Shown: positions 44,694-64,000, counted from the stretch's first letter. The stretch is DNA of 64,000 bases from Escherichia coli (GCF_048403405.1 NZ_CP183129.1), one strand, 5' to 3'. Notes: generated by a model not told the origin, from the letters alone. Program-made: numbers and translations.

Positions 44694-45071
44694 TCACTCC
44701 TGACCAAAATCTTTCCACACTAATGCATGAGACTTTGATTTATCACCCAAAAATTTACTTACATCTTTCCAAAGTAAAGAATTGCTATCGGTCGCAGTGA
44801 CTATTGCCTCTATAAGCCCTGTAGCTACAACTGTGGCCAATTCATCATCAATCGAGACCATACCATCTTCGACATGTTTAAATATTTTTTCTCTTTCAAT
44901 ATCACCCATTTCATAAAAATTTTTTACAATCGTTTTTCCAATCTGAGAGAACAACATAACCACCGGTGGAGTTTCTGGATGCCAGTATTCATTAGCTAAT
45001 GAGACTGTCTCAGACAAAACAGTGGAAAACGATGCCATTTTTTCTATATAATTAGCAATATATTGGTTCAT
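44694..45071 (-). CDS. Putative Rhs toxin immunity protein (125 aa)
   Basis: Start codon overlaps the Rhs stop (TAATG on the minus strand); small cytoplasmic protein; AT-rich by eye like the toxin tip. Confidence 0.6.
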   Translation of the reverse strand: MNQYIANYIEKMASFSTVLSETVSLANEYWHPETPPVVMLFSQIGKTIVKNFYEMGDIEREKIFKHVEDGMVSIDDELATVVATGLIEAIVTATDSNSLLWKDVSKFLGDKSKSHALVWKDFGQE

Positions 45072-45802
45072 TACTTGCCTCCCAAAGCATTCTGTAAATC
45101 CTGAAGAACGTTTTCTGCTGCTGCTCGATCCCCTGGAGATGCTGTTGGATTCTTATCCAACCAATCCTGTAAAGCCCTTGTATAATCCTGTGCTTTCAAT
45201 ACATGTCCTCTACCACCAACTTTTTCACCTGTGGCCAATTCATAACGAACAGCATCTGCTGTGCTTCCACTTCCTACTTTTGCATTTGGCCGATAAAGAT
45301 CGTCTATAATATTTTTCAAATTTGAATCTGTAACGTCAGGTTTTCCCATCTTCTGTCGCAATTCATCTTTATACCGTTCATGCTGCATACGATCTCTTGC
45401 GCTATTCTCATCTTCTGGTCCCCATCCTCCCGGGCTTCCCGTACTGCCACCACCCAGGCAGTTCTTCTCTTCCTCCGTCAAATCCTTCCCGACATTTGGA
45501 TTCTCTTTTGATGAATCATCATTTCCAAACACGCTGGAAAAAGCACCATAGGGATCTCGCCAGAATTCCATTTGACTTTGTGCATTTAATAATTCGGCTT
45601 CACCCTGCATCTCCATACTTTTCTCAATCGCGTCCCCAACAGCCTCGCGATTGTTGTATATTATTATACCACCACCAATAACCACCGTACCGACTGCCGC
45701 ACCGACTAACATCCCCGGAGGGCCTCCTACCGAACCGATCTCTGTACCTACTTCAGAACCAGTTCCCATGGCAGTTAATGCTCCTGCGCCCAACGCCGCA
45801 CT
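45071..45802 (-). other. Rhs variable C-terminal toxin tip (about 243 aa after the DPLGL motif), family not assigned
   Basis: Begins with a Gly-rich hydrophobic stretch ([23 protein letters not shown]), then a charged domain (...[52 protein letters not shown]...). Confidence 0.55.
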
Positions 45803-48800
45803 TAATCCCAGCGGATCCAGCCGTTGCACCGGGTTCAGTGGATACGCATACAGGTTCCATCCCCCCTTCAGCCCAATCGGATCCTGGGTGATATACCTCC
45901 CCTGTAGCGGGTCATAGTACCGGTGACGGTTGTAGTACAGCCCCGACTCCTCATCATACTGCTGCCCCGGCAGACGGAGTGACTGTTGAAGGTGCTGCGC
46001 GCTGGTTTCGCCCAGCAGGTTTCCCCACTCGTCATACTCCCCGCGCCACGCCGTTTCCCCTTCCGGGCTGATAAGCGCCTGCGGCAGCCCACGGTGGTCA
46101 CAGTGGTAAAGATGAAGTTTCCTCTCCGGGATGTATTCCGCCTCCAGTTGCGCCGCCATCTGTTCCGCCGTCAACCCACACTGTGCAAGCCACTGCTGGC
46201 TTTCTTCACTCACGCTGCCCTGCCGCAGTTCCCGCTCCAGCCTCCCCAGCATCACCGCCAGCTCCGCCGGTAGCGTCACACCCGTGTCCTCCTGCAACAC
46301 CTCCGCCAGGCTACGGTGCCGCGCCTTCGCCTGTTCGCCATTCTCTGTTTCGATTCTCAGGAGCGGCGTGAAGCTCCCCGGCTGGTATACCGTCTGGATA
46401 CGCGTGGTGTCGGTCTGTACCGTCGTCAGCCTGTCGCCGTCCCACCCGTACCAGGTCACCTCCGGTTTACGCGACAGCGACATCCACCCCGTCAGGTCAC
46501 GCTCCCGCCGCCACACCCGTTTTCCCGTCCGGCGGCCCAGCGGGTCATAGAGGTAGCGGCTCTCCACCTGTGGCTCGCCGTGCTGTATCCGCGTGTAGAA
46601 CACCAGGCGGTGCTGGCTGTCGTAATGGTAGTGGTGCGTCCGCTCGTCGTGCATCCGTATCACCCCTTCCGGGATACGGTCCGTCTTCTCCGCCAGCCTG
46701 CCGTATTCATCGTAGCGGTAGACATAGTGCGCATCTTCCGTGATGCGGTTATCCGGCCACGCCGTGAAGGTGCTGTCCGGGTGCAGTTCCGGGTCCGGCA
46801 GCCGGTTTCCTGCCGGGTCCGTCGCATACGGGATATCAATGTCCAGGTTCGCTGCCGTGGTGTGGACGCCCGTCAGCCTTCCCGTGTCGCTGTAACGGTA
46901 CTCCCGGCTCTCCTGCGGGCCGCTGATGCGAATTAGCTGTCCGTTGTCGTTCCAGTCGTAGTCACGGTCAAGCTGCGGAAGGTTCAGGTGCCTGCTCCGG
47001 AGCTGGCCGCTGGTATTCCAGGCGGTGGCAAGCTCATATGCCTCCCCGCCGAAGCTGCGGGCCGTCTCACGGTGCAGCCGGTCCCGCGTGTACTCGACCA
47101 GTGGCGTACCACCCAGCTTCATTCCCGCAAGATAACCGCTGCCATACGTCAGCCACTCCACCGGCGGCAGACCGTCCGGCTCCTGACGGGTCGCCAGCCC
47201 CTGTTCGCTGTACGCGTGCTTCATCTCATGCTCCCACAGCATCTCCCCCGTCTCCGGGTTCTCCACCGTCTGCCGTTCGCCGGTCAGGCGGCCTTTATCG
47301 TCGTGGCCGTAGTGGACCGCCACACGGTGGCCTTCGCTGATATGGCTGATTTCTGTCAGCCAGCCGTGCTCATCATACTGCCACTGCTCCGCCGGGTCGC
47401 CGTTCACCGTCCGGTGCGTGATGCGGTCCGACGCATCGTAATGCCAGAGGGTGATAAGTCCCTCGTCTTCACTGTGGACAAGCTGCCCTGTGGCGCTGTA
47501 CCGGTAACGCTGCGTCCTGCCGTCAAAGCCGCGCTGCTCCGTCAGCCTGTCCACCGGGTCATACCGGAACGTGGACTGGCTGCCGTTCTCGTTGGTCAGC
47601 ACGGTGATGCGCCCGGCAGCGTCATACCCCATGCTGCGCGTCAGACCGCCTTCCGTCACACTCACCGGACGCCCGCGTTTATCATATTCGATGGTGCTGC
47701 GTTTACCGTCCGGTGATATCGTTGCTGTCAGGTCGCCTGCGGCGCTGTACTCATAACGGGTTTCACGCCCCTGCGCATCCTTCTGACTGACCAGTTGGCC
47801 TCGCGGGTTATAACTGCTGTAAGTGCTGATGCCTTCCTCCCGGTGAACGGCGATTTGTTGACCGTACCGGTCATACTCATACCGCGTCATGTACCCCGAG
47901 CAGTCCGTGAAGGCCCGAAGCTGACCGTACCGGTTTCGCGTTATTCTCCGCGTCACCCCGATTCCGTCTTCCACCGCGCCGGGCAGGCTACTGCGGGGGG
48001 AGTCATAAAACCAGCGCGTAATGTTACCGTTGCGCGAGATCTCTTCTGCCAGTCGGCCCTGACGGTCATATTTCCGGCTGCTGCGTAAACCATCCGGATA
48101 TGTCACTGAAGTCAGTTGCAACTGGCTGTTGTAACCATACCGTACCGTCCTGCCGTCCGGCAGTATCACTGAAGTCAGCTTTCCAGACGCCATATGCAGC
48201 CGGTACTCCGTCCGCCGTCCTGCCGCATCCGTCTGCGCCTTCAGCCTCCCCGCCTCATCATACTCGCTGCGGGTGATGCTCCCGTCGGCATGCTCCTTCT
48301 TCACCACACGCTTCAGGCCACCCCCGCCTTCCGTGTACAGCACCTCCCGCCGGTTCAGGCTGTCCGTGATGGTCACACGGTCCTGCCCGTACTCAAAGCG
48401 GTAGTCCAGCCCCTCCGGGTTGACCTGCTCCGTCACCCGCCCGGTATCATCATACCGGTAGCGGCTCTCCGGCCTCCCTGCATAATGGTGCGCCACCATC
48501 CGCCCGGCGTGCTCCGCATCATAAGTAAACCCGCGCACCTGCGTCCCGCTGCGGTCATACACCGCCCGCAGTTCTCCGCTGGCCGTGTACGTATAGCGCG
48601 CCAGCGGCGCAGTCGGCTGTTCATCCGGGTATGCCGGGTCGTGTGTCAGCCACACCGCCTCCAGCCGGATACCGTTATCGGCACCGTATTCTGTACCGGC
48701 GGGCAGCGTATCGGGGAAAACCTGAGAAGAGGAAACAGAACGGGGACCGGCTGGAGAAGATAAAGAAGAGGCGCGCTGTTTACGGAAGGCTTCCGCCCGC

Positions 48801-49573
48801 TGCGCCTGCGTGCTCAGCGCCAGGTGAAAACAGCGGCCCGCGCCGTCCGTCACCCCCGTCACCGCACCCGCCACGTCACCCTCTGCCGCCCGGTGGAAGG
48901 CCAGCGTCCGCCCGAAGCCGTCCACCACGCCCGTCAGCACCCGGTATGCGGGCGGCTCCGGCGGCAGCACCTCGTCCGCCCCCGGCACCCGCTCCGGCCA
49001 GCCGAGCACCAGCCACTGCCCGGTTGTGCTGGCAGCCATCATATAGATGTGTGGACTCAGACGGACCGCTTCCGGCAACGCCCGCCAGAGCCGCGCAAGC
49101 GGGTGGCCTTTGTGCTGCTGTTTCAGCACCCCGCACCGCGCCAGCCAGAACGACTCGCTGCGGCTGTAGCTTATCTCGCCGGGAAACAGGGGTTCAAAGT
49201 GAATGCTCCTGCCGCCGCTGTCGTTGAGTATCAGGCCTTCATCGCGTATCTGTAAGCGGATATCGAAGGGGGCTTTCCAGCCGGGACCAAACACCCCCAC
49301 CGGCGCGGGCGTCCTGGTCCGGTAGCTGCTGTAGGCGCGGAAAAGAACAAACGGCAGCGGGCCGGACAGTGCCAGGTCGGTTTCAGCAGGCAGCACCTTC
49401 GCTCCCAGCAGCGGGTTTACCGGATTGCCATATTTCGGCGTGGCTTCCCCTGTGGGACACACCGAGCAGGCCACACCGGTTGGCGCACCTATCAGCACCC
49501 CTGCTGAACCCTGCACAATATCCAGTCCCTTGCGGGTCATGTCACCCTGCCGCGCCGCCGGTTTTCCACCCAT
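45071..49573 (-). CDS. rhs: PAAR-domain Rhs-family T6SS effector (RhsA-like core with variable C-terminal toxin)
   Basis: 1500 aa; N-terminal PAAR-like [13 protein letters not shown]...[18 protein letters not shown]; YD repeats; core end ...[42 protein letters not shown]. Confidence 0.9.
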
Positions 49574-49648
49574 GAATCAATTCCTTCTGCTTTTAATATG
49601 GTTTATCTGGTCACTGCACCAGTTCCGTTTTAATTTTTTGCACCTGAC

Positions 49649-51790
49649 TCAAAATTGCCGCATATCCGGCATTCCGGGGGGTAAATCTTTCGGCACAGGC
49701 GCATCCGGTACAGGTTGTGTGGCACCACAGTTCCAGTTAATCACCGGCGCATCACCGTTCACATCCGACTCTCCTTCCAGATGAATGTGCGTACCATTGA
49801 GAAATATGCTTCCGTCCTTCGTCAGCACCAACCTTGCCTTACCGCAGCAGAGTTCCAGATGCTCACCGGCAGAATAAACTGCTGTTTGTCCGGTGTTTTC
49901 CTTCATCGTCTTGCCCACCGAGAAGGTGACGTTATTCCCTACATTGACGCTGTAGCCCATTCCCACCATCAGTGATTTATGCAGCCCTACCTGTGAGGAC
50001 TGCAACAACGCCACCGAGGTATTCATGATGCCGCCTACCGTCGTCTGGTAAGCCACGCCCACCGTCAGCGCACGAATGATCCCCACCTTTTCAACCTGGT
50101 TTGAACCCACTTTGACAATCTGGTTGCTGCCTACCGTTTCCACCTGGTTGACACCAACCGTCTGTATCTGATTAACGCCAATGTTCTGGATCTGGTTATT
50201 GGTAACGGTGATCGCCTGGTTGTTACCTATTTTTTCGGCATGGTTGTTTATCACATCAGTGGTGCGGTTATTCAGCACCTCGGTGTTCATGTTCTTCTGC
50301 GCGTGGATGTAGACCTGTTCTTTCCCTGTCGCATCGTCAAACTTCAGTTCATTAAACCCGCTGCCCTTATAGGTTTTTGAACGAATGGTCATCTGCGTCT
50401 TTGTTCCCGGCAGGCTGCCGGGGGTGCGGTTTTCCTGGTGGTAGGTGCGCCCCATAATAATCGGCTGGTCCGGATCGCCGTTGAGGAAGTCCACAATGAC
50501 TTCCTGACCCACACGCGGTATCGCCAGGTTGCCAAAGCCGGTGCCTGCCCACGCCTGTGCCACACGGATCCAGCATGAACTGTCCTGGTTTGACGGGTTA
50601 TAGCGGTCCCAGTTAAATTTCACCCGCACGCGGCCATGTTCATCACAGAAGATTTCTTCTCCTGCCGGTCCCGTCACGACGGCGCTCTGCGGGCCGTCCA
50701 CCAGCGGTTTCAGCAACGGCTGTGGCCGCCATGTTCTGTCTGCCGGTATTACCGCAAAGTGGTTATTCAGCGTGGTACCTGAACCCCTGCGTCCCGGCAC
50801 CGCCTGCGGCTGCTCGCCGTGCAGTTCACTTGCCACCACCTGCCATTCCCGGTTCAGGTTCGCCTGCGGATGCCCCGTCAGCGCAATTCGCCGTCCCGGC
50901 CATATCTCCGGCGAACGGCTTGTTCCGCGCGCCACTTCTGCGTTGTTTCGCCAGCCATCCATCTGCCAGCAGGCAAAGTTCTGCCCGTGGGCACCCTTGA
51001 AACGTCCGGGGTAGTCATACACTTCATACTGTGTGCGCTGGTAATCCTGGTGCTGGCCTTCCTGATCAAAACGCCCTGCCCAGCCGGGTCGTTTAAAGGT
51101 GTAGTCTTTGGTCACCACGGAAGATGGGCGGATTTGTGCGCTGTAGAGGAACTGGCTGATGCATAGGGTGCTCACCTCGGTACGGGTGTTCGGATTCCAG
51201 GGGATCTCAAAGGACTCCGGCAGATAACGCACGGTGTCGCACAGGACCAGGCTCTGGTCGGTACTTTTTTGCGCGTGCTCCTCATAAAAGAAGATGCCTT
51301 CCTCCGCCGCCATCCGGCACAGGAAATCGTAATCGGTTTCGCCGTACTGGACACAAAACTCACGGGAAGGATGCGGCTCGCTGAACAGCGGACTCCACTC
51401 GGTCACCCCGTTTTCTTTCAGGATCGTCGCGAGTATGCTTTCGATGTCCTCATTCTGGAAGATACGGAAGTTCTGGCGCAGCCCTGTGCGCCACAGCGGT
51501 GGGCACACCTTCATGCTGTACAGCATCTGGTTTTTGTCGTTCTCCCCCAGTTCAAACCAGGTCACCACACCTTTCACCCGGCGCTGTACGTCATCGCCCT
51601 GCCATACCGTCAGGTAGGCCATTTTGTCCAGCACCTGCGCAAATTCAAGGGAGAGAAACTGCTGGCTGACCAGAGAGAGATCGAGGGAAAAGAGCGAAGA
51701 GAGTGACTGGTTCAGATGAAAGGAGACCACCGCAAACGCGTCCGGTGGCAGGCCGTCCACTTCCAGCGTGAAACGTAATCCGGTTGACAT
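49649..51790 (-). CDS. vgrG: T6SS spike protein VgrG (TssI)
   Basis: 713 aa; gp27/gp5-like; beta-helical repeats (...NNQIQNIGVNQIQTVGVNQVETVGSNQIVKVGSNQVEKVG...). Confidence 0.9.
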   Translation of the reverse strand: MSTGLRFTLEVDGLPPDAFAVVSFHLNQSLSSLFSLDLSLVSQQFLSLEFAQVLDKMAYLTVWQGDDVQRRVKGVVTWFELGENDKNQMLYSMKVCPPLWRTGLRQNFRIFQNEDIESILATILKENGVTEWSPLFSEPHPSREFCVQYGETDYDFLCRMAAEEGIFFYEEHAQKSTDQSLVLCDTVRYLPESFEIPWNPNTRTEVSTLCISQFLYSAQIRPSSVVTKDYTFKRPGWAGRFDQEGQHQDYQRTQYEVYDYPGRFKGAHGQNFACWQMDGWRNNAEVARGTSRSPEIWPGRRIALTGHPQANLNREWQVVASELHGEQPQAVPGRRGSGTTLNNHFAVIPADRTWRPQPLLKPLVDGPQSAVVTGPAGEEIFCDEHGRVRVKFNWDRYNPSNQDSSCWIRVAQAWAGTGFGNLAIPRVGQEVIVDFLNGDPDQPIIMGRTYHQENRTPGSLPGTKTQMTIRSKTYKGSGFNELKFDDATGKEQVYIHAQKNMNTEVLNNRTTDVINNHAEKIGNNQAITVTNNQIQNIGVNQIQTVGVNQVETVGSNQIVKVGSNQVEKVGIIRALTVGVAYQTTVGGIMNTSVALLQSSQVGLHKSLMVGMGYSVNVGNNVTFSVGKTMKENTGQTAVYSAGEHLELCCGKARLVLTKDGSIFLNGTHIHLEGESDVNGDAPVINWNCGATQPVPDAPVPKDLPPGMPDMRQF

Positions 51791-51999
51791 AGCAACCTCC
51801 GGGTTTAAGGAAAAACAGACAGTTCGCTGTTAAAGCGGCTGTAACAGTACAGTGTTACGCTTGCGTTCAGGCACGCTACCGCCGAAGTTTCCGGCATCCG
51901 CCATCTCCCGTGAACGTAACCCCTTACTGACAACCTTTCTTTTTACGGCGTAATACAAAAACAGCATCCGGCCTAATAGCCGGATGCTGTTGGCTTAAC

Positions 52000-52518
52000 T
52001 TATGCTTCCAGCGGTGCGCGCCAGTCGTCGGCACCGGAGGTGCCAGACTTGACGTGTTCCCACTCTATTTTGCGGTAGGCCAGTGAAACTTCGAGCAACT
52101 GGGTGAACTCGCGTTTCGCCGGATCCTGGCAATGCGGCATATGCAGTTTCATATCGACAATCGTCGAATCGGTCAGGCGGGTGGTGAAATAATGCTCCTG
52201 TTTGCCTTCCACAGAGGTACGCCACCAGTGAAGTTCAGTGGTTGGCAGCATTTCGCCGGAGGCCAGTGCGTTGTACATCAGCGGAACAGCTTTGTTCAGC
52301 GCCACGGTAAAAATGAACGGCTTGTGAGCACGCTGACCCGCAGGCTGGCCGGACTGAGGATCGGTCGGGACAGTAACGTTATGCAGGAATTCCTGCACCA
52401 GCATCTCGTCTTCGTGCCCCTGCACATAGATGTTGCCGACAGAATCAGCGGTAAATGCACCTGCAGTAATATTTCCCTGGGTCTGACCAGTGATGGAGAT
52501 ATAACACGGTGTTGGCAT
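52000..52518 (-). CDS. hcp: T6SS tube protein Hcp (TssD)
   Basis: 172-aa ORF MPTPCYISITGQTQGNITAGAF... Confidence 0.9.
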   Translation of the reverse strand: MPTPCYISITGQTQGNITAGAFTADSVGNIYVQGHEDEMLVQEFLHNVTVPTDPQSGQPAGQRAHKPFIFTVALNKAVPLMYNALASGEMLPTTELHWWRTSVEGKQEHYFTTRLTDSTIVDMKLHMPHCQDPAKREFTQLLEVSLAYRKIEWEHVKSGTSGADDWRAPLEA

Positions 52519-53214
52519 TTGTAAACTCCTTGTTAACGTGGTTAATTACTACTTACAATGACCTGCCGTTAATCCCAGACAGGCAGATGCAACTCACTTC
52601 ACGGAACCGCATCATTTTTCAGTATTTTTTACATACAAACCGAGCTAGAATTTACGGTTGTCGTAAAAACTATTTTTAAAATCATTAAATCTCTTATTCA
52701 GCAATAAGTTAATAATATATATCTGGATAACCATACCCAACTGTTCAAAGTCCGTATTGCCTCCATAAAATGGCCAAAGCTGAATCATGAATAAATATTG
52801 TATTTATCCTTTCTGAATTATCATTTTGATAATTTTTGAGATATTCCTTAAAAATACCCACTTAATCAATCACAAAACAAATATATAAACAAGCAATCAT
52901 CAGATTAGCTTATGTTTAATGAAATTATTATATAATTCAATAAGTTACATAAAAACTCTATATTTAAATTATTGCCATAATACACCTGACGCGAATTTCG
53001 AAGGTTCACACAATCTATTTAACGCTTGCAGAATACCTCTCTTTACGATCGATAAAAAGTCCTTTTCTTATTTATTTTGAAGCGTAGAATGCGGGGTGAT
53101 GAAGGAGTGGTGATTTTATTTTCACCGCCATTAAGGCGGCATTGCCGATATTTTTTTGCGGTACAAATATGCCGTGTTCATGGCCTGTACGAGATAACAT
53201 GACGGATCACTTTT
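52519..53214. promoter_or_regulatory. AT-rich divergent intergenic control region between hcp-vgrG-rhs (-) and tssB operon (+)
   Basis: About 700 bp non-coding, very AT-rich with A/T tracts; flanked by divergent operon starts. Confidence 0.5.
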
Positions 53215-53715
53215 ATGAGCAAAAAATTTGAAGGCAGCGTCGCGCCTCGCGAGCGTATAAATATATCCTATGTCCCGAAGACGGACGGCCAGACGGCTGA
53301 AGTGGAGCTTCCGCTTAACATGCTCGTTGTCGGCGATACCGGAAATACGCAGGAGACATCCCCACTGGATGAACGTCAGGCAGTTTCCGTTAACAAGCAC
53401 AATTTCGGTGCGGTGATGGCTGAAGCAGCCATTGGCCTCAATTTTACCGTCCCCGCCACGCTGAAGGGAAGCACAACGGACGATGAACTGAATGTGGCGC
53501 TGAATATCAAGTCACTGGATGATTTTTCACCGGACAGCGTGGCCCGGCAGGTTCCGGAAGTTAATAAATTGCTGGAATTGCGTGAAGCACTGACTGCGCT
53601 GAAGGGGCCGATGGGCAACCTTCCGGCATTCCGTACCCAGCTCCAGGCATTGCTGGAAAATGAGGAGTCCCGCGAGCAGTTGCTCAAAGAAATCGGCCAA
53701 GTGAGTGGGAAATAA
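53215..53715 (+). CDS. tssB: T6SS contractile sheath small subunit TssB
   Basis: 166 aa; motif RERINISYVPKTDGQTAEVELPLNMLVVGD. Confidence 0.88.
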   Translation: MSKKFEGSVAPRERINISYVPKTDGQTAEVELPLNMLVVGDTGNTQETSPLDERQAVSVNKHNFGAVMAEAAIGLNFTVPATLKGSTTDDELNVALNIKSLDDFSPDSVARQVPEVNKLLELREALTALKGPMGNLPAFRTQLQALLENEESREQLLKEIGQVSGK

Positions 53716-54024: not shown

Positions 54025-55500
54025 ATGTCTTTACAGGAAGAGGAACTCGTTTCCAGTCATGCCGGGCAGCCTGAGCAGGCATCGTCGCTGCTTGATCAAA
54101 TCATGGCACAGACCCGTATTCAGCCCGGTTCGGAAGGTTATGACGTTGCCCGCCAGGGTGTGACAGCCTTTATTGCCAGCATCCTGCAATCCACTGCATC
54201 TGCCGAACCGGTCAATAAACTGGCCGTGGACAGCATGATTGCAGATATTGATGAACGCATCAGCCGCCAGATGGATGTCATCATCCATGCGCCTGCCTTT
54301 CAGCAGGTCGAGTCGTTCTGGCGCTCACTGAAAACCATGGTGGATCGCGTTGATTTCCGTGAAAACATCAAGGTCAACGTGCTTCATGTCACCAAGCAGG
54401 AACTTCTGGAAGACTTTGAGTTTGCGCCAGAAATTATTCAGTCCGGATTTTATAAGCACGTTTATTCGTCCGGTTTCGGACAGTTTGGCGGTGAACCCAT
54501 CGCTGCCGTGCTGGGCGCTTATGAGTTCAAAAATACCGCGCCTGACATGAAACTGCTGCAATACGTCAGTGCCGTGGGCGCAATGGCGCACGCACCGTTC
54601 CTGTCCTCCGTTTCCCCGGAGTTTATGGGGCTGAACTCGTGGACCGAACTGCCTAATATCAAAGATCTTTATGCCATCTTTGAAGGTCCGGCCTACACCA
54701 AATGGCGCGCCCTGCGAGACTCGGAAGATTCGCGCTATATAGGGCTTACGGCACCCCGCTTCCTGCTTCGCCAGCCTTATTCACCAACAGATAACCCTGT
54801 TAAGAACTTTAACTATCACGAAGATGTCAGCCGGAACCACGAAGATTATCTGTGGGGTAATACGGCCTGGATGCTGGCGTGCAATGTCGCAGACAGTTTT
54901 GCCAAATACCGCTGGTGTCCAAATATCATCGGTCCGCAAAGCGGCGGCGCAGTGAAAGATCTGCCGGTGCATCTGTTCGAAACGATGGGTCAGATTCAGG
55001 CCAAAATCCCAACCGAGGTGCTGGTCACCGATCGCCGCGAATTTGAACTGGCTGAAGAGGGTTTTATCACCCTTACCATGCGTAAAGACTCTGATAATGC
55101 AGCCTTTTTCTCTGCAAACTCGGTACAAAAACCGAAGCACTTTCCGGGCAAAGACGCAGAAACCAACTATAAGTTGGGTACGCAGCTTCCTTATCTCTTC
55201 ATCATCAATCGGTTAGCGCACTACATCAAGGTGTTGCAGCGTGAACAACTGGGGTCATGGAAAGAAAGGAGCGACTTAGAGAGGGAGCTTAATACCTGGA
55301 TCCGTCAGTATGTTGCCGACCAGGAAAACCCGCCTGCGGACGTGCGCAGCCGCAAGCCTCTGCGTGCTGCCAGAGTTGAGGTTATGGATGTGGAAGGCGA
55401 ACCCGGCTGGTACCAGGTCGCGCTGAGCGTGCGGCCCCATTTTAAATTTATGGGGGCAAACTTTGAGCTTTCCCTGGTTGGCCGGTTAGACAGGGAGTAA
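54025..55500 (+). CDS. tssC: T6SS contractile sheath large subunit TssC
   Basis: 491-aa ORF following tssB. Confidence 0.9.
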   Translation: MSLQEEELVSSHAGQPEQASSLLDQIMAQTRIQPGSEGYDVARQGVTAFIASILQSTASAEPVNKLAVDSMIADIDERISRQMDVIIHAPAFQQVESFWRSLKTMVDRVDFRENIKVNVLHVTKQELLEDFEFAPEIIQSGFYKHVYSSGFGQFGGEPIAAVLGAYEFKNTAPDMKLLQYVSAVGAMAHAPFLSSVSPEFMGLNSWTELPNIKDLYAIFEGPAYTKWRALRDSEDSRYIGLTAPRFLLRQPYSPTDNPVKNFNYHEDVSRNHEDYLWGNTAWMLACNVADSFAKYRWCPNIIGPQSGGAVKDLPVHLFETMGQIQAKIPTEVLVTDRREFELAEEGFITLTMRKDSDNAAFFSANSVQKPKHFPGKDAETNYKLGTQLPYLFIINRLAHYIKVLQREQLGSWKERSDLERELNTWIRQYVADQENPPADVRSRKPLRAARVEVMDVEGEPGWYQVALSVRPHFKFMGANFELSLVGRLDRE

Positions 55501-55506: not shown

Positions 55507-55920
55507 ATGATACCGGATCGGGAAAGAACCACAGGTTCTCTTTTTGAGCGTATGGAAGCCTCACCGGCCAGAAACTGGCAAGGAAGCAGTATTCATGCGC
55601 TCAGGCAGTCCATTCGCCAGAACCTGCGAAACATTCTTAATACCCGATCCGGTAGTTGCCGGGGTGCGCCTGAACTGGGCATTGATGAACCTGAAGGGGC
55701 TGAAAACTTCCGCGAATCAATGAGTCTGGCCATCGCGCAATGTATAGAACGCTATGAACCCCGGATCTCACACGCTGAAGTGCAGGCTGTGGTTTCATCC
55801 GCCGCCAGCCCGCTGGATATGACGTTTCGTATTACAGCCTGGGTGACATTTAACGAAACGCATGAGGTGCTTGAATTTGATATGGCACCGAATGGCAGCC
55901 AGCATTACCGGGTGGACTGA
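55507..55920 (+). CDS. tssE: T6SS baseplate protein TssE (gp25-like)
   Basis: 137 aa; SLFERM and ...RQNLRNILNTRSGS motifs. Confidence 0.75.
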   Translation: MIPDRERTTGSLFERMEASPARNWQGSSIHALRQSIRQNLRNILNTRSGSCRGAPELGIDEPEGAENFRESMSLAIAQCIERYEPRISHAEVQAVVSSAASPLDMTFRITAWVTFNETHEVLEFDMAPNGSQHYRVD

Positions 55921-55923: not shown

Positions 55924-57774
55924 ATGGAATTTGAAGAACGCTATTTCCGGGAAGAACTCGATTACCTGCGCCAGCTTAGCAAGCTGCTGGCAACGGAAAA
56001 ACCCCATCTGGCCCGCTTCCTGGCCGAAAAAGATGCAGATCCGGATATTGAACGCCTGCTGGAAGGGGTGGCTTTTCTTACCGGCAATCTCCGCCAGAAA
56101 ATTGAGGATGAATTCCCAGAACTGACGCACGGGCTTATTAAGATGCTATGGCCTAATTACCTGCGTCCGGTTCCGGCAATGACCCTTATTGAATATACGC
56201 CGGATATGGATAAGTCTTCTGTACCGGTGTTAATCCCCCGTAATGAGCAGTTTACAACCAACGCCGGGGAAATCAGAGTTGATGAAGTGCTGCCCTCTGA
56301 TGCTAAAAAGGAGGAGCCTCCTCCCTGTACCTTCACCCTCTGCCGGGATATCTGGCTGCTGCCCGTTCGCCTGGAGCAGATTGAAAACCGCAGTACGACC
56401 CGTAATGGTGTTATCAACATCACCTTTTCGGTCGCACCGGGAACGGACTTCCGCACGCTGGATCTGAACAAACTTCGCTTCTGGCTCGGCAATGACGACA
56501 ACTATACCCGTGACCAGCTTTATTTATGGTTCTGTGAATACTTGCAGGGTGCCGACCTGACTGTGGGTGAACAGCATATTCGCCTGCCTGAGTTTATGCT
56601 GAAAGCTGTCGGTTTTGAGCCGCAGGATGCCATGCTGCCCTGGCCGAAAAACGTCCACAGCGGCTACCGGATCCTTCAGGAGTATTTCTGTTACCCCGAT
56701 GCGTTTCTCTTTTTTGATCTTTGTGGTTGTCCGGCTTTGCCTGACGGATTGCAGGCGGAATTCTTTACCCTGCAACTGCGTTTTTCGCGCCCTTTGCCCG
56801 TGGACATCCGGCTGCGCCGCGATTCCCTGCGCCTGTATTGCGCACCTGCCATTAATTTATTTATCCACCATGCAGAAGCCATCACGCTGGACAACCGGCG
56901 GGCAGACTATCCGCTGGTTCCCAGCCGCCATTACCCACAACATTACGATGTATTTTCCGTTAACAGTGTGGTGAGCCAGGTCCAGGATATGTTCAGGAAA
57001 AAAGATCTGGGGCGTCCTGTTTCGACGCAGGCCGCGCGCCAGTGGCCAGCCTTTGAAAGTTTCAGCCATCAGATGGAATACAGCCGGAAGCGGGAAGTGG
57101 TGTACTGGCATCACCGGACCAAAACATCCCTGTTCCATCGCGGCTTTGATCATACTCTTGCCTTTATACATGCTGATGGCAGTTATCCGTCAGATGAATC
57201 TCTGCTCAGTAATGAAGTGGTTTCGGTATCGCTGACCTGTACCAACCGTGAGCTTCCGTCACAAATTCGTTCCGGCGATATCACCGGCACAACCGGTAAA
57301 AATGCGGCTGTTGCTTCATTTCGCAACATTACCCGCCCGACGCAACCACTCTGGCCGGTCATTGATGGCAGCCTGCACTGGTCCCTACTCTCCGCCATGA
57401 ACCTGAATTATCTGTCATTACTGGATACGGACGCGCTGAAGCAGGTCATCGCCAACTTTGATCGCCACGCAATCCATCATCCGCAGACGGCGCGGCTGTC
57501 ACAACAAAAGCTGGATGCCATTGAGCGTCTGGAGACTCGCCCTGTCGACCGCCTGTTTACGGGCATTCCCGTCCGGGGGCTGGCCTCCACGCTGTATCTG
57601 CACCCGGAGCCGTTTGTCTGTGAAGGGGAAATGTATCTGCTCGGTACGGTGCTTTCGCATTTTCTGTCGCTGTACGCCAGCGTTAACTCATTCCACATGC
57701 TGACCGTTGTGAACACAGAAAGCCAGGAGACATGGAAATGGACGGAAAGAACCGGGCAGCATCCTCTTATCTGA
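55924..57774 (+). CDS. tssF: T6SS baseplate protein TssF
   Basis: 616 aa; YFREELDYLRQL... DPDIERLLEGVAFLTG. Confidence 0.85.
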   Translation: MEFEERYFREELDYLRQLSKLLATEKPHLARFLAEKDADPDIERLLEGVAFLTGNLRQKIEDEFPELTHGLIKMLWPNYLRPVPAMTLIEYTPDMDKSSVPVLIPRNEQFTTNAGEIRVDEVLPSDAKKEEPPPCTFTLCRDIWLLPVRLEQIENRSTTRNGVINITFSVAPGTDFRTLDLNKLRFWLGNDDNYTRDQLYLWFCEYLQGADLTVGEQHIRLPEFMLKAVGFEPQDAMLPWPKNVHSGYRILQEYFCYPDAFLFFDLCGCPALPDGLQAEFFTLQLRFSRPLPVDIRLRRDSLRLYCAPAINLFIHHAEAITLDNRRADYPLVPSRHYPQHYDVFSVNSVVSQVQDMFRKKDLGRPVSTQAARQWPAFESFSHQMEYSRKREVVYWHHRTKTSLFHRGFDHTLAFIHADGSYPSDESLLSNEVVSVSLTCTNRELPSQIRSGDITGTTGKNAAVASFRNITRPTQPLWPVIDGSLHWSLLSAMNLNYLSLLDTDALKQVIANFDRHAIHHPQTARLSQQKLDAIERLETRPVDRLFTGIPVRGLASTLYLHPEPFVCEGEMYLLGTVLSHFLSLYASVNSFHMLTVVNTESQETWKWTERTGQHPLI

Positions 57775-58820
57775 GTCCGGGAAATCCCCCGGCAGATAAA
57801 GAGCAGAATGATCCGCTGGCACAGGTTTTTCATAACGCCTGCTCTTACAATTTTTTTGCGATGGCGGAGCTGTTGCACCGCCTGGCACAGGGTGAAAAGG
57901 GGACGCCGGAATTATCCCTGCGCGACGATCCGGCACAGGAAACCCTGCGTTTCAGCGCCGATGCCAGCCTTGCGTTTCCCCTGAGTGATATCAGTGCGCT
58001 GAAACGGGATACGTCAGGGGCATTCAGGATGACCACTACCTTTATGGGGTTACAGGGGAGCCAGTCGCCTCTCCCCGGTTATTACCTCGATCACCTGGCC
58101 TGGAAAGCGGTACATGAACAAAGTCCGGTAGGTGATTTTCTGGATATGTTCAGCCACCGCCTGACCCAGTTTGTCTGGCATATCTGGCGTAAGTACCGCT
58201 ATCACATCAGTTTTCGTAACGGCGGTGTGGATGCGTTCTCGCAGCGCATGTACTCCCTTGTTGGGCTGGGCCACCGCCAGCTTCGCGATAAGCTGGCGAT
58301 TAATCACAGCAAAATGCTGGCGTATTCCGGGATCCTGGCAAATCCGGGACGATCCCCGGAAATAATCTGCGGTCTGGTGTCCCACTGTTTTGATTTGTCA
58401 GACGTGACGCTGCAAAACTGGCAACGTCGCAAGGTGGATATTGAACCGGATCAGCAAAATAGCCTGGGGAGTTATTCACTTAAAAATGGCGAAAAACTGG
58501 CAGGAAGATCGGTACTGGGCAACTTTGTTCTGGGTACACGGGTGCCCGATCTCAGCGGAAAATTCCAGCTCAGTATTACCAGCCTGACCCGAAAACAGTT
58601 CCTCTCTTTTCTGCCGTCCGGCGAAAACTTCCTGCCACTGACGATGTTTGTGTCCTTCATCCTGCGCGATCAGCTTGCCTGGGACTTACATCTGGGGCTG
58701 GCGCCGGAGCAGGTGGGCGCAATGCGCCTGGGCGATAACAAAAGTGCGCTGCTGGGCTGGACCAGCTTCCTCGGCACACCGGAAGAACGACCTTCAGTCA
58801 CCATCAGGGTACGGTCGTAA
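57732..58820 (+). CDS. tssG: T6SS baseplate protein TssG
   Basis: 362 aa, overlaps tssF end. Confidence 0.8.
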   Translation: MEMDGKNRAASSYLSPGNPPADKEQNDPLAQVFHNACSYNFFAMAELLHRLAQGEKGTPELSLRDDPAQETLRFSADASLAFPLSDISALKRDTSGAFRMTTTFMGLQGSQSPLPGYYLDHLAWKAVHEQSPVGDFLDMFSHRLTQFVWHIWRKYRYHISFRNGGVDAFSQRMYSLVGLGHRQLRDKLAINHSKMLAYSGILANPGRSPEIICGLVSHCFDLSDVTLQNWQRRKVDIEPDQQNSLGSYSLKNGEKLAGRSVLGNFVLGTRVPDLSGKFQLSITSLTRKQFLSFLPSGENFLPLTMFVSFILRDQLAWDLHLGLAPEQVGAMRLGDNKSALLGWTSFLGTPEERPSVTIRVRS

Positions 58821-58823
58821 ATT

Positions 58824-60125
58824 ATGATAATCACGGAGCAGAATATGCCGGAAGAGAAACTACAGACGCTTTCATTGCAGGTCATTAACGGCAGTGAGCT
58901 GGAAAGCGGGCGGGCGGCGCGCTGTCTGTTCACACAGCAGGGAAATGTCGGCCATGGCCCCGAATGCCACTGGTCGGTACAGGATCGTCAGCAGAGCATT
59001 CCGGCTCAGGCTTTTACCGTTATCCTGCACGATGGCACATTTTGTCTGCGCCCGCAGACGGCACAACTGTGGCTGAACCAAGCAAAAGTCACAGCAACAT
59101 CAGACCTGATACAGCTGCGCCAGGGCGATGAGATCCAGATAGGGCGTCTGATGGTGAGGGTTCATCTGAACCGGGGAGATATCCCCCATTACGATGAGGA
59201 AATGGCCACTCCCGAAACCATCGTCACCAATCGCGATATGCTCACGGATACCCTGCTGTCAACGGAGGGTGCGCCACACTATCCGGGAATGACTCACCGG
59301 CATCAGCTTGCAGACACCGTGGTAAACGGTTTTTCTGCCGATCCACTCCAGGCTCTTCAGTCCGAAAGCCTGATTACCACGGGCGATCCGCTTTCAGGCA
59401 TTGCGGCTGTCCGGCCATCGGCACCGCTGTCCGATCCGGCAAGTAATGGGGGGATCAATACGCCGTTTATGGATCTGCCGCCCATTTATGCCAGCCCCGG
59501 CGATCGTAATGATGACGTCTCTGTGGCAGAAATGGCGCAACGCCACCTTGCGGTCACCCCCTTACTGCGCGGTCTCGGCGGTTCGCTTACCGTGAGCAAT
59601 TCCGACGATGCGGATGATTTTCTGGAAGAGGCCGGACGAACGTTACAGGCCGCAATAAAAGGTCTGCTCGATTTGCAGCAACAGCGTAACAGCCTCTCAG
59701 ACAAACATTTGCGCCCGCTGGAAGATAACCCGCTGCGCCTGAACATGGATTACGCCACCGCGCTCGACGTGATGTTTGCCGAAGGTAAAAGTCCGGTACA
59801 TCTGGCGGCTCCCGCCGCTGTCAGTGAAAGCCTGCGCAATGTCCGCCACCACGAAGAAGCTAACCGGGCAGCGATTGTGGAGTCGCTTCGTGTCCTGCTG
59901 GATGCTTTCTCACCACAAAATCTGCTGCGCCGCTTTGTGCAGTACCGCCGCAGCCATGAACTGCGCCAGCCGCTGGATGATGCCGGAGCATGGCAAATGT
60001 ACAGCCATTATTACGAAGAACTGGCCTCCGATCGCCAGCAGGGGTTTGAGATGCTGTTTAACGAGGTCTACGCCCAGGTCTATGACCGGGTGCTTCGTGA
60101 AAAACAGCGGGAGCCGGAAGCATGA
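58824..60125 (+). CDS. tagH: FHA-domain T6SS-associated protein (TagH/Fha-like)
   Basis: N-terminal FHA-like fold region (...QGNVGHGPECHWSVQDRQ...LRQGDEIQIGRLMVRVH). Confidence 0.7.
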   Translation: MIITEQNMPEEKLQTLSLQVINGSELESGRAARCLFTQQGNVGHGPECHWSVQDRQQSIPAQAFTVILHDGTFCLRPQTAQLWLNQAKVTATSDLIQLRQGDEIQIGRLMVRVHLNRGDIPHYDEEMATPETIVTNRDMLTDTLLSTEGAPHYPGMTHRHQLADTVVNGFSADPLQALQSESLITTGDPLSGIAAVRPSAPLSDPASNGGINTPFMDLPPIYASPGDRNDDVSVAEMAQRHLAVTPLLRGLGGSLTVSNSDDADDFLEEAGRTLQAAIKGLLDLQQQRNSLSDKHLRPLEDNPLRLNMDYATALDVMFAEGKSPVHLAAPAAVSESLRNVRHHEEANRAAIVESLRVLLDAFSPQNLLRRFVQYRRSHELRQPLDDAGAWQMYSHYYEELASDRQQGFEMLFNEVYAQVYDRVLREKQREPEA

Positions 60126-60646
60126 ACAGGAAGGCGTTTCTGGCCTGCGTGCTGATGTGCGTCATATTAACCGGCTGCGAAACGGCGAAAAAAATCAGCG
60201 AGGTGATCAAAAACCCGGATATCCAGGTCGGGAGCCTGAAGGAGCAACCTTCGGAAATAACCGTCACCCTGCTGACCGAACCGGACACCAATACCAATGC
60301 GGAGGGTGAATCAGCCGCCGTGGATGTGCAACTGGTGTACCTGACTGACGACTCAAAATTGCTGGCAGCCGACTATGACCAGATAGCCAGTACGCCGCTA
60401 CCGGATGTGCTGGGTAAAAACTATATCGACCACCAGGATTTCAACCTGTTGCCGGACACCATCAAAACCCTGCCGCCGGTAAAGCTGGATGAGAAAACGC
60501 AGTTTATTGGTGTCGTGGCCTATTTCTCCGATGACCAGGCCACTGAATGGAAACAAATCGAGACGGTGGAAGGAACCGGCCACCATTACCGCCTGCTGGT
60601 GCATGTACGTCAAAGCAGCATCGAAATGAAAAAAGAGGATGAATAA
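60122..60646 (+). CDS. tssJ: T6SS outer-membrane lipoprotein TssJ
   Basis: Lipobox ILTGC after signal peptide MNRKAFLACVLMCV; 174 aa. Confidence 0.75.
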   Translation: MNRKAFLACVLMCVILTGCETAKKISEVIKNPDIQVGSLKEQPSEITVTLLTEPDTNTNAEGESAAVDVQLVYLTDDSKLLAADYDQIASTPLPDVLGKNYIDHQDFNLLPDTIKTLPPVKLDEKTQFIGVVAYFSDDQATEWKQIETVEGTGHHYRLLVHVRQSSIEMKKEDE

Positions 60647-60648
60647 TT

Positions 60649-61980
60649 ATGGCAACCACCCGCAACAAGGTGATGTGGCAGGAAGGGATGCTGATGCGCC
60701 CACACCATTTCCAGCAACAGCAGCGTTACAACGACTACCTGGATAACCAGCGTTTCCGGGCCATGAATGATTTATCCTGGGGATTTACCGAACTCACCCT
60801 CAACAATGAACTGCTGGCGCAGGGTAAGATCATGATTGACAGCGCGTCAGGCACACTGCCCGACGGCACCGTCTTTTCTATCCCCGACCAGGACGCACTG
60901 CCCGATCCGCTGCACCCGCAACATTTTCCGGACGAAAGAAGCCGCAATATTTACCTCGCTCTGCCGGTCGCCAGTGATGTGAGAAATGAAATCAGCGACG
61001 GGCGGCGAATCGGGCGTTACCGGCTGAATTATGCCGATGTCCGGGATCTGCATTCAGAAGAAGGTGACGCGCGAACACTGACGCTGGGTCAACTGACGCC
61101 GCGCATTATGAGCGGTGCAGAAGATATGAGCGCCTATATTACGCTCCCGCTTTGCCGTATCAGCGATCGCCATGCCGACGGCTCCCTGACGCTGGATGAC
61201 GATTTTATCCCCTCCTGCCAGAATATTCAGGTCAGTAAGAAACTGCGTGTTTATCTCAAAGAGGTACAGGGGGCCATTGGCGGACGGGCAAGCGATCTGG
61301 CAAACCGCATTGGCTCTCCGGCGCAGAGCGGCATCGCGGATGTGGCGGAATTTATGATGTTGCAGTTACTTAACCGTAACCAGACCCGGTTTACCCATCG
61401 CGCTCGTCGATCCCAGCTCCACCCGGAAGATTTCTACCTTGATCTTGCCGGGTTGCTGGGTGAACTGATGACCTTTACCGAGCCGTCGCGCCTGCCCTGC
61501 CCGCTTGATGTGTATGATCATCATGACCTGACCAAAACATTTAAAACGCTGTTACCGGAAGTCAAACGGGCGCTGCATACCGTACTGTCGCCAAGAGCCG
61601 TTAATCTGCCGCTGCATCTGCGTGACGGTATCTGGCAGGCCGATATCCATGACACAGAACTGCTGCAATCTGCCACCTTTGTGCTGGCCGTGGCGGCAAA
61701 CATGCCGGTCGATCAGATCCAGCGCCAGTTTATCCAGCAGTCGAAAATTTCCTCGCCGGAAAAAATCCGCAATATGGTCAGTGTGCAGATACCCGGCATT
61801 CCATTGCGTGCCCTGATGGTGGCTCCCCGCCAGCTTCCTTACCATTCCGGGTTCAGCTATTTCGAACTCGACAAGAGCGGCCAGGCCTGGACAGAAATGG
61901 CTGCCGCCGGGGCCGTTGCACTGCATGTATCCGGCAGTTTCCCGGATCTGAACATGCAACTGTGGGCGATAAGAGGGTAA
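60649..61980 (+). CDS. tssK: T6SS baseplate protein TssK
   Basis: 443 aa; N-terminal VMWQEGMLMRPHHFQQQ motif. Confidence 0.85.
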   Translation: MATTRNKVMWQEGMLMRPHHFQQQQRYNDYLDNQRFRAMNDLSWGFTELTLNNELLAQGKIMIDSASGTLPDGTVFSIPDQDALPDPLHPQHFPDERSRNIYLALPVASDVRNEISDGRRIGRYRLNYADVRDLHSEEGDARTLTLGQLTPRIMSGAEDMSAYITLPLCRISDRHADGSLTLDDDFIPSCQNIQVSKKLRVYLKEVQGAIGGRASDLANRIGSPAQSGIADVAEFMMLQLLNRNQTRFTHRARRSQLHPEDFYLDLAGLLGELMTFTEPSRLPCPLDVYDHHDLTKTFKTLLPEVKRALHTVLSPRAVNLPLHLRDGIWQADIHDTELLQSATFVLAVAANMPVDQIQRQFIQQSKISSPEKIRNMVSVQIPGIPLRALMVAPRQLPYHSGFSYFELDKSGQAWTEMAAAGAVALHVSGSFPDLNMQLWAIRG

Positions 61981-61984
61981 GACG

Positions 61985-62746
61985 ATGGATGAGGGGTCAC
62001 TGTCTCTGCCACCATTTACCGGACACCACGAAAAAAGCCAGCGCGACTATCATCTCGCGCTTCGTGGCAACAGCCTGAATCCGATGATCGACGCAGCCAC
62101 GCCGCTCCTCGGTATGGTGATGCGCCTTTCAACCATGAACAGTCAGACGATGCCGGAGCATCTTTTTGCTCAGGTGGTGACGGATGTTCAGGCCGTGGAG
62201 CAACTGCTTCAGGAGCAGGGCTACGAACCGGGCGTGATTATCTCGTTTCGCTACATCCTCTGCACGTTTATTGATGAAGCGGCGCTCGGTAACGGCTGGT
62301 CGAACAAGAACGAGTGGATCAAGCAGTCATTGCTGGTCCATTTCCACAACGAAGCCTGGGGTGGAGAGAAAGTTTTCATCCTGCTGGAGCGCCTGATCCG
62401 TGAACCCAAACGTTACCAGGATCTGCTGGAATTTCTCTGGCTCTGTTTTTCTCTGGGATTTCGCGGGCGCTACAAAGTGGCAGCACAGGATCAGGGGGAA
62501 TTTGAGCAGATCTACCGCCGCCTGTACCACGTCCTGCATAAACTACGCGGCGATGCCCCTTTCCCGCTGTTACACCAGGACAAAAAAACCCAGGGCGGGC
62601 GTTATCAGCTCATCAGTCGCCTGACCATTAAACATATTTTTTGTGGTGGCGTTGTCGTGCTGGCGTTGTTTTACCTGTTCTATCTGTTGCGGTTGGACAG
62701 CCAGACGCAGGACATCCTGCACCAGCTAAACAAATTACTTCGATAA
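61985..62746 (+). CDS. tssL: T6SS membrane protein TssL (DotU/IcmH-like)
   Basis: 253 aa with a single C-terminal TM (VVVLALFYLFYLL). Confidence 0.8.
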   Translation: MDEGSLSLPPFTGHHEKSQRDYHLALRGNSLNPMIDAATPLLGMVMRLSTMNSQTMPEHLFAQVVTDVQAVEQLLQEQGYEPGVIISFRYILCTFIDEAALGNGWSNKNEWIKQSLLVHFHNEAWGGEKVFILLERLIREPKRYQDLLEFLWLCFSLGFRGRYKVAAQDQGEFEQIYRRLYHVLHKLRGDAPFPLLHQDKKTQGGRYQLISRLTIKHIFCGGVVVLALFYLFYLLRLDSQTQDILHQLNKLLR

Positions 62747-62754
62747 GGACGTTT

Positions 62755-64000
62755 ATGATCCAGATTGATCTTCCCACGCTGGTAAAACGGCTTAACCTGT
62801 TCTCCCGCCAGGCGCTGGAGATGGCCGCCTCTGAATGTATGAGCCAGCAGGCAGCGGAAATTACCGTCAGCCATGTGCTTATTCAGATGCTCGCCATGCC
62901 ACGCAGCGACCTGCGGGTTATTACCCGCCAGGGCGATATTGGCATGGAAGAGTTGCGCCAGGCGCTGACGGTGGAGAACTACACAACTGCCCGTTCTGCG
63001 GACAGCTACCCGGCATTTTCCCCGATGCTGGTTGAGTGGCTGAAAGAGGGCTGGCTGCTGGCGTCGGCTGAGATGCAGCACAGCGAATTGCGTGGCGGCG
63101 TGTTGCTGCTGGCCCTGCTGCATTCGCCGCTGCGTTATATACCGCCTGCTGCCGCCCGGTTGTTGACCGGCATTAACCGTGACCGTCTGCAACAGGACTT
63201 TGTACAGTGGACACAGGAGTCGGCGGAATCAGTCGTGCCGGATGCAGACGGTAAAGTCGCAGGCACACTGACGGACGCTGCTGACACCCTGCTTGCCCGC
63301 TACGCCAAAAACATGACCGCAGACGCCCGTAACGGCAGGCTTGACCCGGTACTGTGCCGCGACCACGAAATCGACCTGATGATCGACATTCTCTGCCGCC
63401 GCCGCAAGAACAACCCGGTGGTGGTGGGCGAAGCAGGCGTGGGTAAAAGTGCCTTAATCGAAGGGCTGGCGCTGCGCATCGTGGCAGGCCAGGTGCCGGA
63501 CAAACTGAAAAACACCGATATCATGACCCTTGACCTAGGCGCATTGCAGGCCGGGGCGTCGGTGAAGGGCGAATTCGAAAAACGCTTCAAGGGGCTGATG
63601 GCGGAGGTCATTTCCTCTCCGGTGCCGGTCATTCTGTTTATTGACGAAGCACATACCCTGATTGGCGCGGGCAACCAGCAGGGCGGGCTGGATATCTCCA
63701 ACCTGCTCAAACCGGCGCTGGCGCGCGGCGAACTGAAAACCATCGCCGCCACCACCTGGAGCGAATACAAAAAATACTTCGAGAAAGATGCCGCCCTGTC
63801 GCGCCGCTTCCAGCTGGTGAAGGTCAGCGAACCCAACGCCGCCGAAGCCACCATTATTCTGCGTGGTCTGTCGGCGGTCTATGAACAGTCTCACGGCGTG
63901 CTGATTGATGATGACGCCTTGCAGGCCGCAGCAACGCTGAGCGAACGTTATCTCTCCGGGCGTCAGTTGCCGGACAAAGCCATTGATGTGCTGGATACCG
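62755..64000 (+). CDS. clpV: T6SS AAA+ ATPase ClpV (TssH), 5' part; continues beyond window
   Basis: Walker A GEAGVGKSAL; Clp N-domain; ORF open to the window end. Confidence 0.9.
   Translation, partial: MIQIDLPTLVKRLNLFSRQALEMAASECMSQQAAEITVSHVLIQMLAMPRSDLRVITRQGDIGMEELRQALTVENYTTARSADSYPAFSPMLVEWLKEGWLLASAEMQHSELRGGVLLLALLHSPLRYIPPAAARLLTGINRDRLQQDFVQWTQESAESVVPDADGKVAGTLTDAADTLLARYAKNMTADARNGRLDPVLCRDHEIDLMIDILCRRRKNNPVVVGEAGVGKSALIEGLALRIVAGQVPDKLKNTDIMTLDLGALQAGASVKGEFEKRFKGLMAEVISSPVPVILFIDEAHTLIGAGNQQGGLDISNLLKPALARGELKTIAATTWSEYKKYFEKDAALSRRFQLVKVSEPNAAEATIILRGLSAVYEQSHGVLIDDDALQAAATLSERYLSGRQLPDKAIDVLDT

Follow-up and report, generated by a model that had tools for sequence, protein, structure and literature searches.

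The 64,000-nucleotide stretch of Escherichia coli DNA analyzed here (GCF_048403405.1 NZ_CP183129.1; called the window below) carries, from position 44694 to its end, genes of a type VI secretion system (T6SS). We are confident that this region comprises two thirds of the T6SS-2 island at the tRNA-Asp gene aspV, on the side of yafV, that it belongs to the type found in strain ECC-1470 and in enterohemorrhagic E. coli (EHEC), and that it encodes a contractile injection machine. Gene content, gene integrity, identity to reference loci, island borders, and the modularity of the toxin were all observed directly, and no evidence contradicting the T6SS-2 identification was found. The aspV-linked T6SS-2 island is already known and is a catalogued, textbook accessory locus. 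An initial annotation, made from the DNA alone, had described a T6SS island in which hcp, vgrG, and rhs form a divergent arm, and this description is borne out by the open reading frame (ORF) listing and the NCBIfam matches.

Gene content, type, and borders of the island

Genes were called from the ORF listing together with NCBIfam scans. Twelve genes exceeded the curated cut-offs at near-full model length, clpV was matched in part, and the ORF next to rhs was unmatched. The initial annotation had counted thirteen genes; its list in fact holds fourteen, and every one was found at its place. On the plus strand are the sheath genes tssB (small subunit, positions 53215 to 53715; TIGR03358, E = 1.1e-50) and tssC (large subunit, 54025 to 55500; TIGR03355, E = 1e-211, model positions 2 to 473 of 473), followed by the baseplate genes tssE (55507 to 55920; TIGR03357, E = 2.2e-32), tssF (55924 to 57774; TIGR03359, E = 6.4e-168), and tssG (57732 to 58820; TIGR03347, E = 1.4e-104). 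The FHA-domain accessory gene tagH (58824 to 60125; TIGR03354, E = 1.4e-101) precedes tssJ, for the outer-membrane lipoprotein of the membrane complex (60122 to 60646; TIGR03352, E = 3.7e-39), the baseplate gene tssK (60649 to 61980; TIGR03353, E = 6.7e-136), and tssL, for the DotU-family inner-membrane component (61985 to 62746; TIGR03349, E = 5.9e-64). The strand assigned earlier to clpV (tssH) is correct, but only its first 415 codons lie in the window, the end of which cuts the gene (62755 to 64000; TIGR03345, E = 1.6e-166, model positions 4 to 405 of 852).

The divergent arm on the minus strand consists of hcp (tssD), for the 172-amino-acid tube protein (52000 to 52518; TIGR03344, E = 1.7e-61); vgrG (tssI), for a 713-amino-acid spike protein (49649 to 51790; TIGR03361, E = 5e-188); rhs, encoding 1,500 amino acids (45071 to 49573; NF041261 RHS_core, 2492.9 bits against a cut-off of 2000); and a putative immunity ORF of 125 amino acids (44694 to 45071). 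VgrG has the Pfam domains Phage_GPD, Phage_base_V, and Gp5_trimer_C, that is, gp27/gp5-like modules and the gp5 C-terminal trimerization domain. Compared with the T6SSi inventory, the sheath, tube, and spike set (TssB, TssC, Hcp/TssD, and VgrG/TssI) was found in full and at full length, as was the whole baseplate set (TssE, TssF, TssG, and TssK) above cut-offs; of the membrane complex, TssJ and TssL are encoded inside the window, while TssM lies outside it and is annotated, without a pseudogene flag, in strain MS 69-1. TagH is encoded without any gene for a PpkA-type kinase or PppA-type phosphatase being annotated anywhere in the MS 69-1 island, and an Rfam scan of positions 42000 to 64000 returned zero RNA families.

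In the scheme of Journet and Cascales, the loci at tRNA-Asp have the T6SS-2 organization, with the variants ECC-1470 and APEC O1 (from avian pathogenic E. coli, APEC), and T6SS-1 is located at tRNA-Met; the two variants are mutually exclusive, since they share the insertion site (PMC8715443). The T6SS-2 type includes rhs, a gene for an FHA protein, and additional copies of hcp and of tssA-like genes (PMC10711316), and the EHEC T6SS is of this type (PMC7216683). The locus studied here has the yafV side of the T6SS-2 site in the window and the tRNA-Asp and dnaQ side in MS 69-1, and its content agrees with the previous description (PMC10711316) in having an FHA gene, two copies of hcp, and VasL as an additional TssA-like gene.

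The reference loci compared were those of APEC O1, ECC-1470, and O157 Sakai. ECC-1470 and Sakai have the same yafV-aspV site and the same order of genes as the window, including tagH, the hcp-vgrG-rhs arm in divergent orientation, and the small ORF that separates tssB from tssC; core proteins are 93 to 100% identical (Hcp is 100% identical in both), and nucleotide identity is ~96% over 16.8 to 18.2 kb. They differ in the toxin encoded by the end of rhs and in the immunity gene, both exchanged exactly at the DPxGL boundary of the Rhs core. ISEc1 is present only once in the window, and an orphan rhs fragment is missing from it, both in contrast to Sakai. The APEC O1 locus occupies the same site with the same order of core genes, but its core proteins are only 45 to 88% identical, with Hcp alone reaching 94%; in its effector arm, Rhs is replaced by a DUF2169 adaptor together with a protein that has a PAAR-like domain, and no ORF lies between its tssB and tssC. 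Core identity of 93 to 100% to ECC-1470 and Sakai, against 45 to 88% to APEC O1, therefore assigns the region to the ECC-1470/EHEC variant of T6SS-2. In APEC papers, the aspV-linked T6SS of APEC O1 is called "T6SS1." As a label for the present locus, T6SS-1 was rejected, since in the literature the aspV locus is T6SS-2 under the Journet-Cascales scheme.

On the chromosomal side, the island is preceded by fadE, ivy, and yafV (42133 to 42912). The edge adjoining yafV is a minus-strand segment of 364 bp without a K-12 counterpart (42974 to 43337), which contains a fragment of an IS256-family transposase gene (43007 to 43249; partial NCBIfam match, E = 9.7e-13), annotated in MS 69-1 as a partial transposase pseudogene. 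The transposase gene of ISEc1 (ISAs1 family, "H-repeat") follows on the minus strand, downstream of rhs (43337 to 44473; NF033564, E = 2.6e-125; also annotated in MS 69-1). Positions 42000 to 64000 are 100.0% identical in six complete E. coli chromosomes, MS 69-1 among them, and 1,910 of 5,426 complete E. coli genomes (~35%) contain 80% or more of this 22-kb query. The rhs gene is 4,503 nucleotides long in the window and 4,500 as annotated in MS 69-1, a one-codon difference inside an otherwise 100.0% identical 22 kb.

The initial annotation had placed tssA and tssM beyond clpV, named their absence from the flank as grounds for calling the locus degenerate, and suspected an association with the aspV tRNA. 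In MS 69-1, tssL is followed in order by full-length tssH, vasI, tssA, tssM, a VasL-domain gene, hcp2, a gene for a 305-amino-acid protein, ykfM, and a yafT-like gene; the island ends at the tRNA-Asp gene aspV, which is the published T6SS-2 site (PMC8715443), and dnaQ comes next. No pseudogene flag is set anywhere in this continuation. In a genome identical over positions 42000 to 64000 apart from the one rhs codon, tssA and tssM thus lie where they were expected, the association with aspV holds, and the stated grounds for calling the locus degenerate are not seen. The window nonetheless derives from a related strain, not MS 69-1: an IS200C copy of 704 bp near position 27735 is missing from it, its sequence before position 19564 differs, and the MS 69-1 prophage at tRNA-Thr has no match in the window, of which positions 1 to 19900 instead carry chromosomal genes, e.g., the ecp fimbrial genes and paoC.

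The locus had also been proposed to be accessory and missing from K-12, and direct alignment confirmed that 30.1 kb are absent there between yafV and aspV. K-12 MG1655 has the order yafV, yafF (pseudogene), yafU (pseudogene), ykfM, yafT, aspV. The endpoints of its deletion fall inside the ISEc1 transposase gene (after window position 43617) and inside the gene for the 305-amino-acid protein, of which yafU is the K-12 pseudogene. Identity to K-12 runs to position 42973 and resumes at 43338, and yafF corresponds to positions 43338 to 43617 only. In the MS 69-1 locus (L001), the deleted span is 15619 to 45724; its left endpoint is window position 43618, and the two flanks, when aligned, have 5 bp in common.

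Regulation and integrity of the locus

Between hcp and tssB lies a divergent promoter region of 696 bp (52519 to 53214) with a computed GC content of 33%. A scan of this region for sigma-70 consensus sites found 5 against 3.7 expected from shuffled sequences and was uninformative. Just after the hcp stop codon, on the minus strand, a hairpin with a 14-bp stem is followed by a T run (51960 to 51991), a terminator-like site that may act as a terminator or as a stabilizer of hcp mRNA. Both features resemble those of EHEC, where the hcp3-tssB intergenic region is an H-NS-bound bidirectional promoter, the tssB side forms one long operon, and a hairpin of 14 base pairs at +8 of the hcp3 3' untranslated region terminates transcription and stabilizes hcp3 mRNA, owing to which vgrG3 is transcribed separately from hcp3 (PMC13141884). 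By analogy with EHEC, the AT-rich divergent promoter is probably silenced by H-NS, and the terminator hairpin would uncouple hcp from vgrG-rhs.

The same homology raises the question of whether the cluster, although intact in sequence, is a silent or decaying relic without a role in competition, as in E. coli O157:H7. The EHEC homologue, at 96% nucleotide identity, is repressed by H-NS and showed no secretion or killing even after its promoter was swapped (PMC13141884); EHEC tssM has 28 bp duplicated at its 5' end, which weakens the system (PMC12981562); tssA is a pseudogene in Sakai; rhs is frameshifted in ECC-1470; and the locus is deleted in K-12 and other lineages. Several observations on the copy described here speak against such a reading. 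The window proteins align at full length with those of the reference loci, and therefore no frameshift, which the initial annotation had named as a mark of a degenerate locus, is visible in the genes of the window; rhs is intact and is accompanied by its putative cognate immunity ORF. The MS 69-1 tssA and tssM genes are unflagged, tssM having an undisrupted 5' end without the 28-bp duplication. Core genes were also found to be under strong purifying selection (dN/dS of 0.02 to 0.26). Judged by its sequence, the form of the locus found here is the non-degenerate one, and we regard a silent relic as unlikely, though it is the alternative to be taken most seriously.

A different pattern of selection was seen in a 74-codon ORF between tssB and tssC (53750 to 53974, plus strand), which corresponds to ECs_0232 of Sakai and resembles the TssC N terminus. 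Its residues 33 to 72 are 43% identical over 40 amino acids to residues 63 to 102 of the adjacent TssC (BLASTP, E = 2e-9), and it has a partial match to TIGR03355 (E = 3e-4). All of its organism-named matches are from Escherichia, and several database variants contain out-of-frame stretches. Relative to Sakai and ECC-1470, it has 11 nonsynonymous and 3 synonymous differences, with a dN/dS of ~1.0, compared to 0.02 to 0.26 in the neighboring genes. A role as a sheath regulator was considered and rejected, as a dN/dS near 1 and the out-of-frame variants speak for a relic; the ORF is most likely a remnant of the tssC 5' end and not a gene.

The Rhs effector and its candidate immunity protein

The conserved part of Rhs (45803 to 49573, minus strand) comprises a PAAR-like segment (amino acids 1 to 50), a DUF6531 plug (49 to 126), a YD-repeat shell, and an RHS core with an autocleavage motif; Pfam matches are DUF6531, many RHS_repeat, and the RHS core, and Rhs_assc_core (TIGR03696) was matched at amino acids 1180 to 1257. 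"PAAR-Rhs," the term used in the initial annotation, is the usual literature label for such E. coli proteins (PMC7216683), and it holds in part. The literal PAAR sequence occurs once, at residues 5 to 8, with ~50 residues before the DUF6531 plug, but the Pfam PAAR_motif model (PF05488, E ≤ 10) had no match in Rhs, and a complete PAAR fold of ~90 residues with three repeats was not found. A PDB sequence search with the N terminus returned no PAAR protein among its matches; it aligned P51 of Rhs with P48 of Tse5 (E = 1.1e-14). Cleavage of Tse5 falls between K47 and P48, and the 47 residues before the cut are described as a PAAR-like domain that secretion requires (PMC10684867, PMC9637101). Neither a separate PAAR gene nor an Eag/DUF1795 chaperone gene is present, and the gap between vgrG and rhs is 75 bp. 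The Rhs N terminus thus appears to be a short Tse5-type PAAR-like segment and not a full PAAR domain.

The resemblance to Tse5 (PA2684 of the Pseudomonas aeruginosa H1-T6SS; PDB 8cp6) extends beyond this segment. In both proteins, an N-terminal fragment of ~47 to 50 residues is followed by a proline that starts the DUF6531 plug, and then by a YD-repeat shell, an aspartyl-protease C-terminal plug, and an encapsulated C-terminal toxin; both genes adjoin vgrG with no Eag chaperone gene between. The differences are that the literal Pro-Ala-Ala-Arg at residues 5 to 8 is absent from the Tse5 N terminus and that the C-terminal toxin of Tse5 (Tse5-CT) forms pores and has an immunity protein located in the membrane, whereas here a soluble all-alpha domain is paired with a soluble immunity candidate.

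The core ends at amino acids 1248 to 1257 with [10 protein letters not shown], which fits PxxxxDPxGL, and the variable C-terminal toxin region of 243 residues (amino acids 1258 to 1500; 45074 to 45802, minus strand) begins right after it. GC content, 64% in the Rhs core, drops to 47% across the C-terminal region and to 35% for the immunity ORF, and homology to Sakai rhs stops exactly at the core boundary, nucleotide 45803. Repeats, a core ending in PxxxxDPxGL, and a variable C terminus of lower GC content, the features of an Rhs polymorphic toxin, are therefore all present. The toxin-encoding end of rhs and the 125-amino-acid ORF occur together in 396 of 5,426 genomes (~7%). The apparent exchange of this module at the DPxGL boundary is classic Rhs polymorphism.

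Three parts can be distinguished in the toxin region. The first is a Gly-rich hydrophobic stretch (amino acids ~1279 to 1308; hydropathy up to 2.2), and the second is a linker shared with the C-terminal toxin region of CdiA (CdiA-CT) from uropathogenic E. coli (UPEC) 536 (E ~1e-5). The linker, '[19 protein letters not shown]...', spans amino acids 1355 to 1435 (window ~45270 to 45510, minus strand). Its occurrence in both settings suggests that pre-toxin linkers are exchanged between Rhs and contact-dependent inhibition (CDI) systems. CdiA-CT of UPEC 536 is a CysK-activated Ntox28 tRNA anticodon nuclease (PDB 5j43, 5j5v); the linkers are alike, but the toxin domain of the window shows no profile similarity to Ntox28. 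Identity as a divergent Ntox28 (PF15605) RNase was rejected, as profile comparison with one Ntox28 domain gave a probability of 0.4%.

The third part is a terminal all-alpha domain of ~92 residues (amino acids 1409 to 1500; 45074 to 45349, minus strand). Domains 45 to 75% identical to it occur in several phyla, on proteins annotated as Rhs or filamentous hemagglutinin as well as on many without a name, to which the AlphaFold DB added VENN/CdiA, pre-toxin TG, CpnT-like, Hint, and type VII secretion system (T7SS)-signal carriers. Twelve residues are near invariant: Y1427, R1428, S1435, S1437, T1438, R1443, E1445, H1457, K1460, W1471, N1475, and D1482. Pfam has no toxin family matching the Rhs C terminus, and NCBIfam models match Rhs only up to amino acid 1257. 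A PDB sequence search with the toxin-family profile gave nothing significant. The AlphaFold (AF2) model of the domain has five helices and a mean confidence score (pLDDT) of 89, and Foldseek found no match to this model in the PDB at E ≤ 0.001. The domain may represent an uncharacterized polymorphic-toxin family with carriers across Proteobacteria, Actinobacteria, Planctomycetes, and Firmicutes, a possibly undescribed activity, and a DUF7674-like immunity partner, a proposal that we make with considerable reserve.

Annotation of an immunity gene was correct as to the ORF and its strand; in the scans, no NCBIfam model was matched, and the role is proposed from position. The ORF overlaps the rhs stop codon, and the putative immunity protein of 125 amino acids is acidic (pI 4.8), without a signal peptide, membrane helix, or strongly hydrophobic stretch; it has a weak match to Pfam DUF7674 (E = 5.7e-4). 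An acidic and soluble partner points to a cytoplasmic target, and our best guess, still a tentative one, is that the toxin is an enzyme acting in the cytoplasm, possibly a nuclease. Alternatively, the Rhs C terminus could be a membrane-depolarizing pore former like Tse5-CT. The hydrophobic stretch at its start (amino acids 1279 to 1308) is Gly-zipper-like, and Tse5, which has a pore-forming C terminus, is the closest solved Rhs protein by sequence. The conserved mobile part, however, is the soluble ~92-residue all-alpha domain with its near-invariant Tyr, Arg, Ser/Thr, Glu, His, Lys, and Asp residues, and this domain sits behind many different pre-toxin modules that have no hydrophobic stretch; the putative immunity protein is soluble, whereas Tsi5 is a membrane protein. 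A pore former is consequently improbable.

That the system is aimed mainly at host cells, as proposed for EHEC from KatN secretion and Hcp translocation, is improbable. T6SS-2 is common in intestinal strains, and in EHEC it has been tied to mouse virulence and to resistance to host reactive oxygen species (PMC7216683). The effector encoded here, however, is a polymorphic toxin of the Rhs type that has a small gene for a putative cytoplasmic immunity protein beside it, an arrangement characteristic of interbacterial toxins. Its toxin domain also occurs, in many phyla, on CdiA/VENN, pre-toxin TG, and other scaffolds that deliver toxins between bacteria.

Proposed working of the system and its significance

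For firing, delivery, toxin activity, immunity, and regulation, we infer the following. TssJ, TssL, and TssM (encoded outside the window) would form the envelope-spanning complex, and TssE, TssF, TssG, and TssK the baseplate. Hcp would build the tube and TssB and TssC the sheath, with ClpV recycling the contracted sheath and with TagH, VasI, and the VasL-domain protein as accessory components. The divergent arm would supply the projectile, in which Hcp is joined by VgrG as the spike and by an Rhs cage that docks on VgrG via its short PAAR-like N terminus. By analogy with solved Rhs effectors, the cage would cleave itself after amino acid 1257 and hold the 243-residue C-terminal toxin inside, to be set free after firing into a neighboring Gram-negative cell. 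The Gly-rich hydrophobic segment probably helps the toxin across the inner membrane, after which the terminal ~92-residue all-alpha domain would act in the cytoplasm; the 125-amino-acid cytoplasmic protein would shield the producer and its kin.

Several points limit this picture. Rhs has no Pfam PAAR domain, and the toxin domain lacks a Pfam, NCBIfam, or PDB sequence match as well as similarity to the Ntox28 profile. Under laboratory conditions, the homologous EHEC system is not active and is difficult to switch on (PMC13141884), and activity of the present copy is putative. Moreover, tssA, tssM, and the 3' half of clpV lie outside the window and are taken from the genomes identical over positions 42000 to 64000.

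As a discovery, the locus carries little weight, the island having been catalogued and its EHEC copy already dissected experimentally. The Rhs toxin/immunity pair, present in ~7% of E. coli genomes, could be characterized. Since this copy of the island appears intact, unlike those of EHEC, ECC-1470, and K-12, strains that carry it would be better models for T6SS-2 function than O157:H7.

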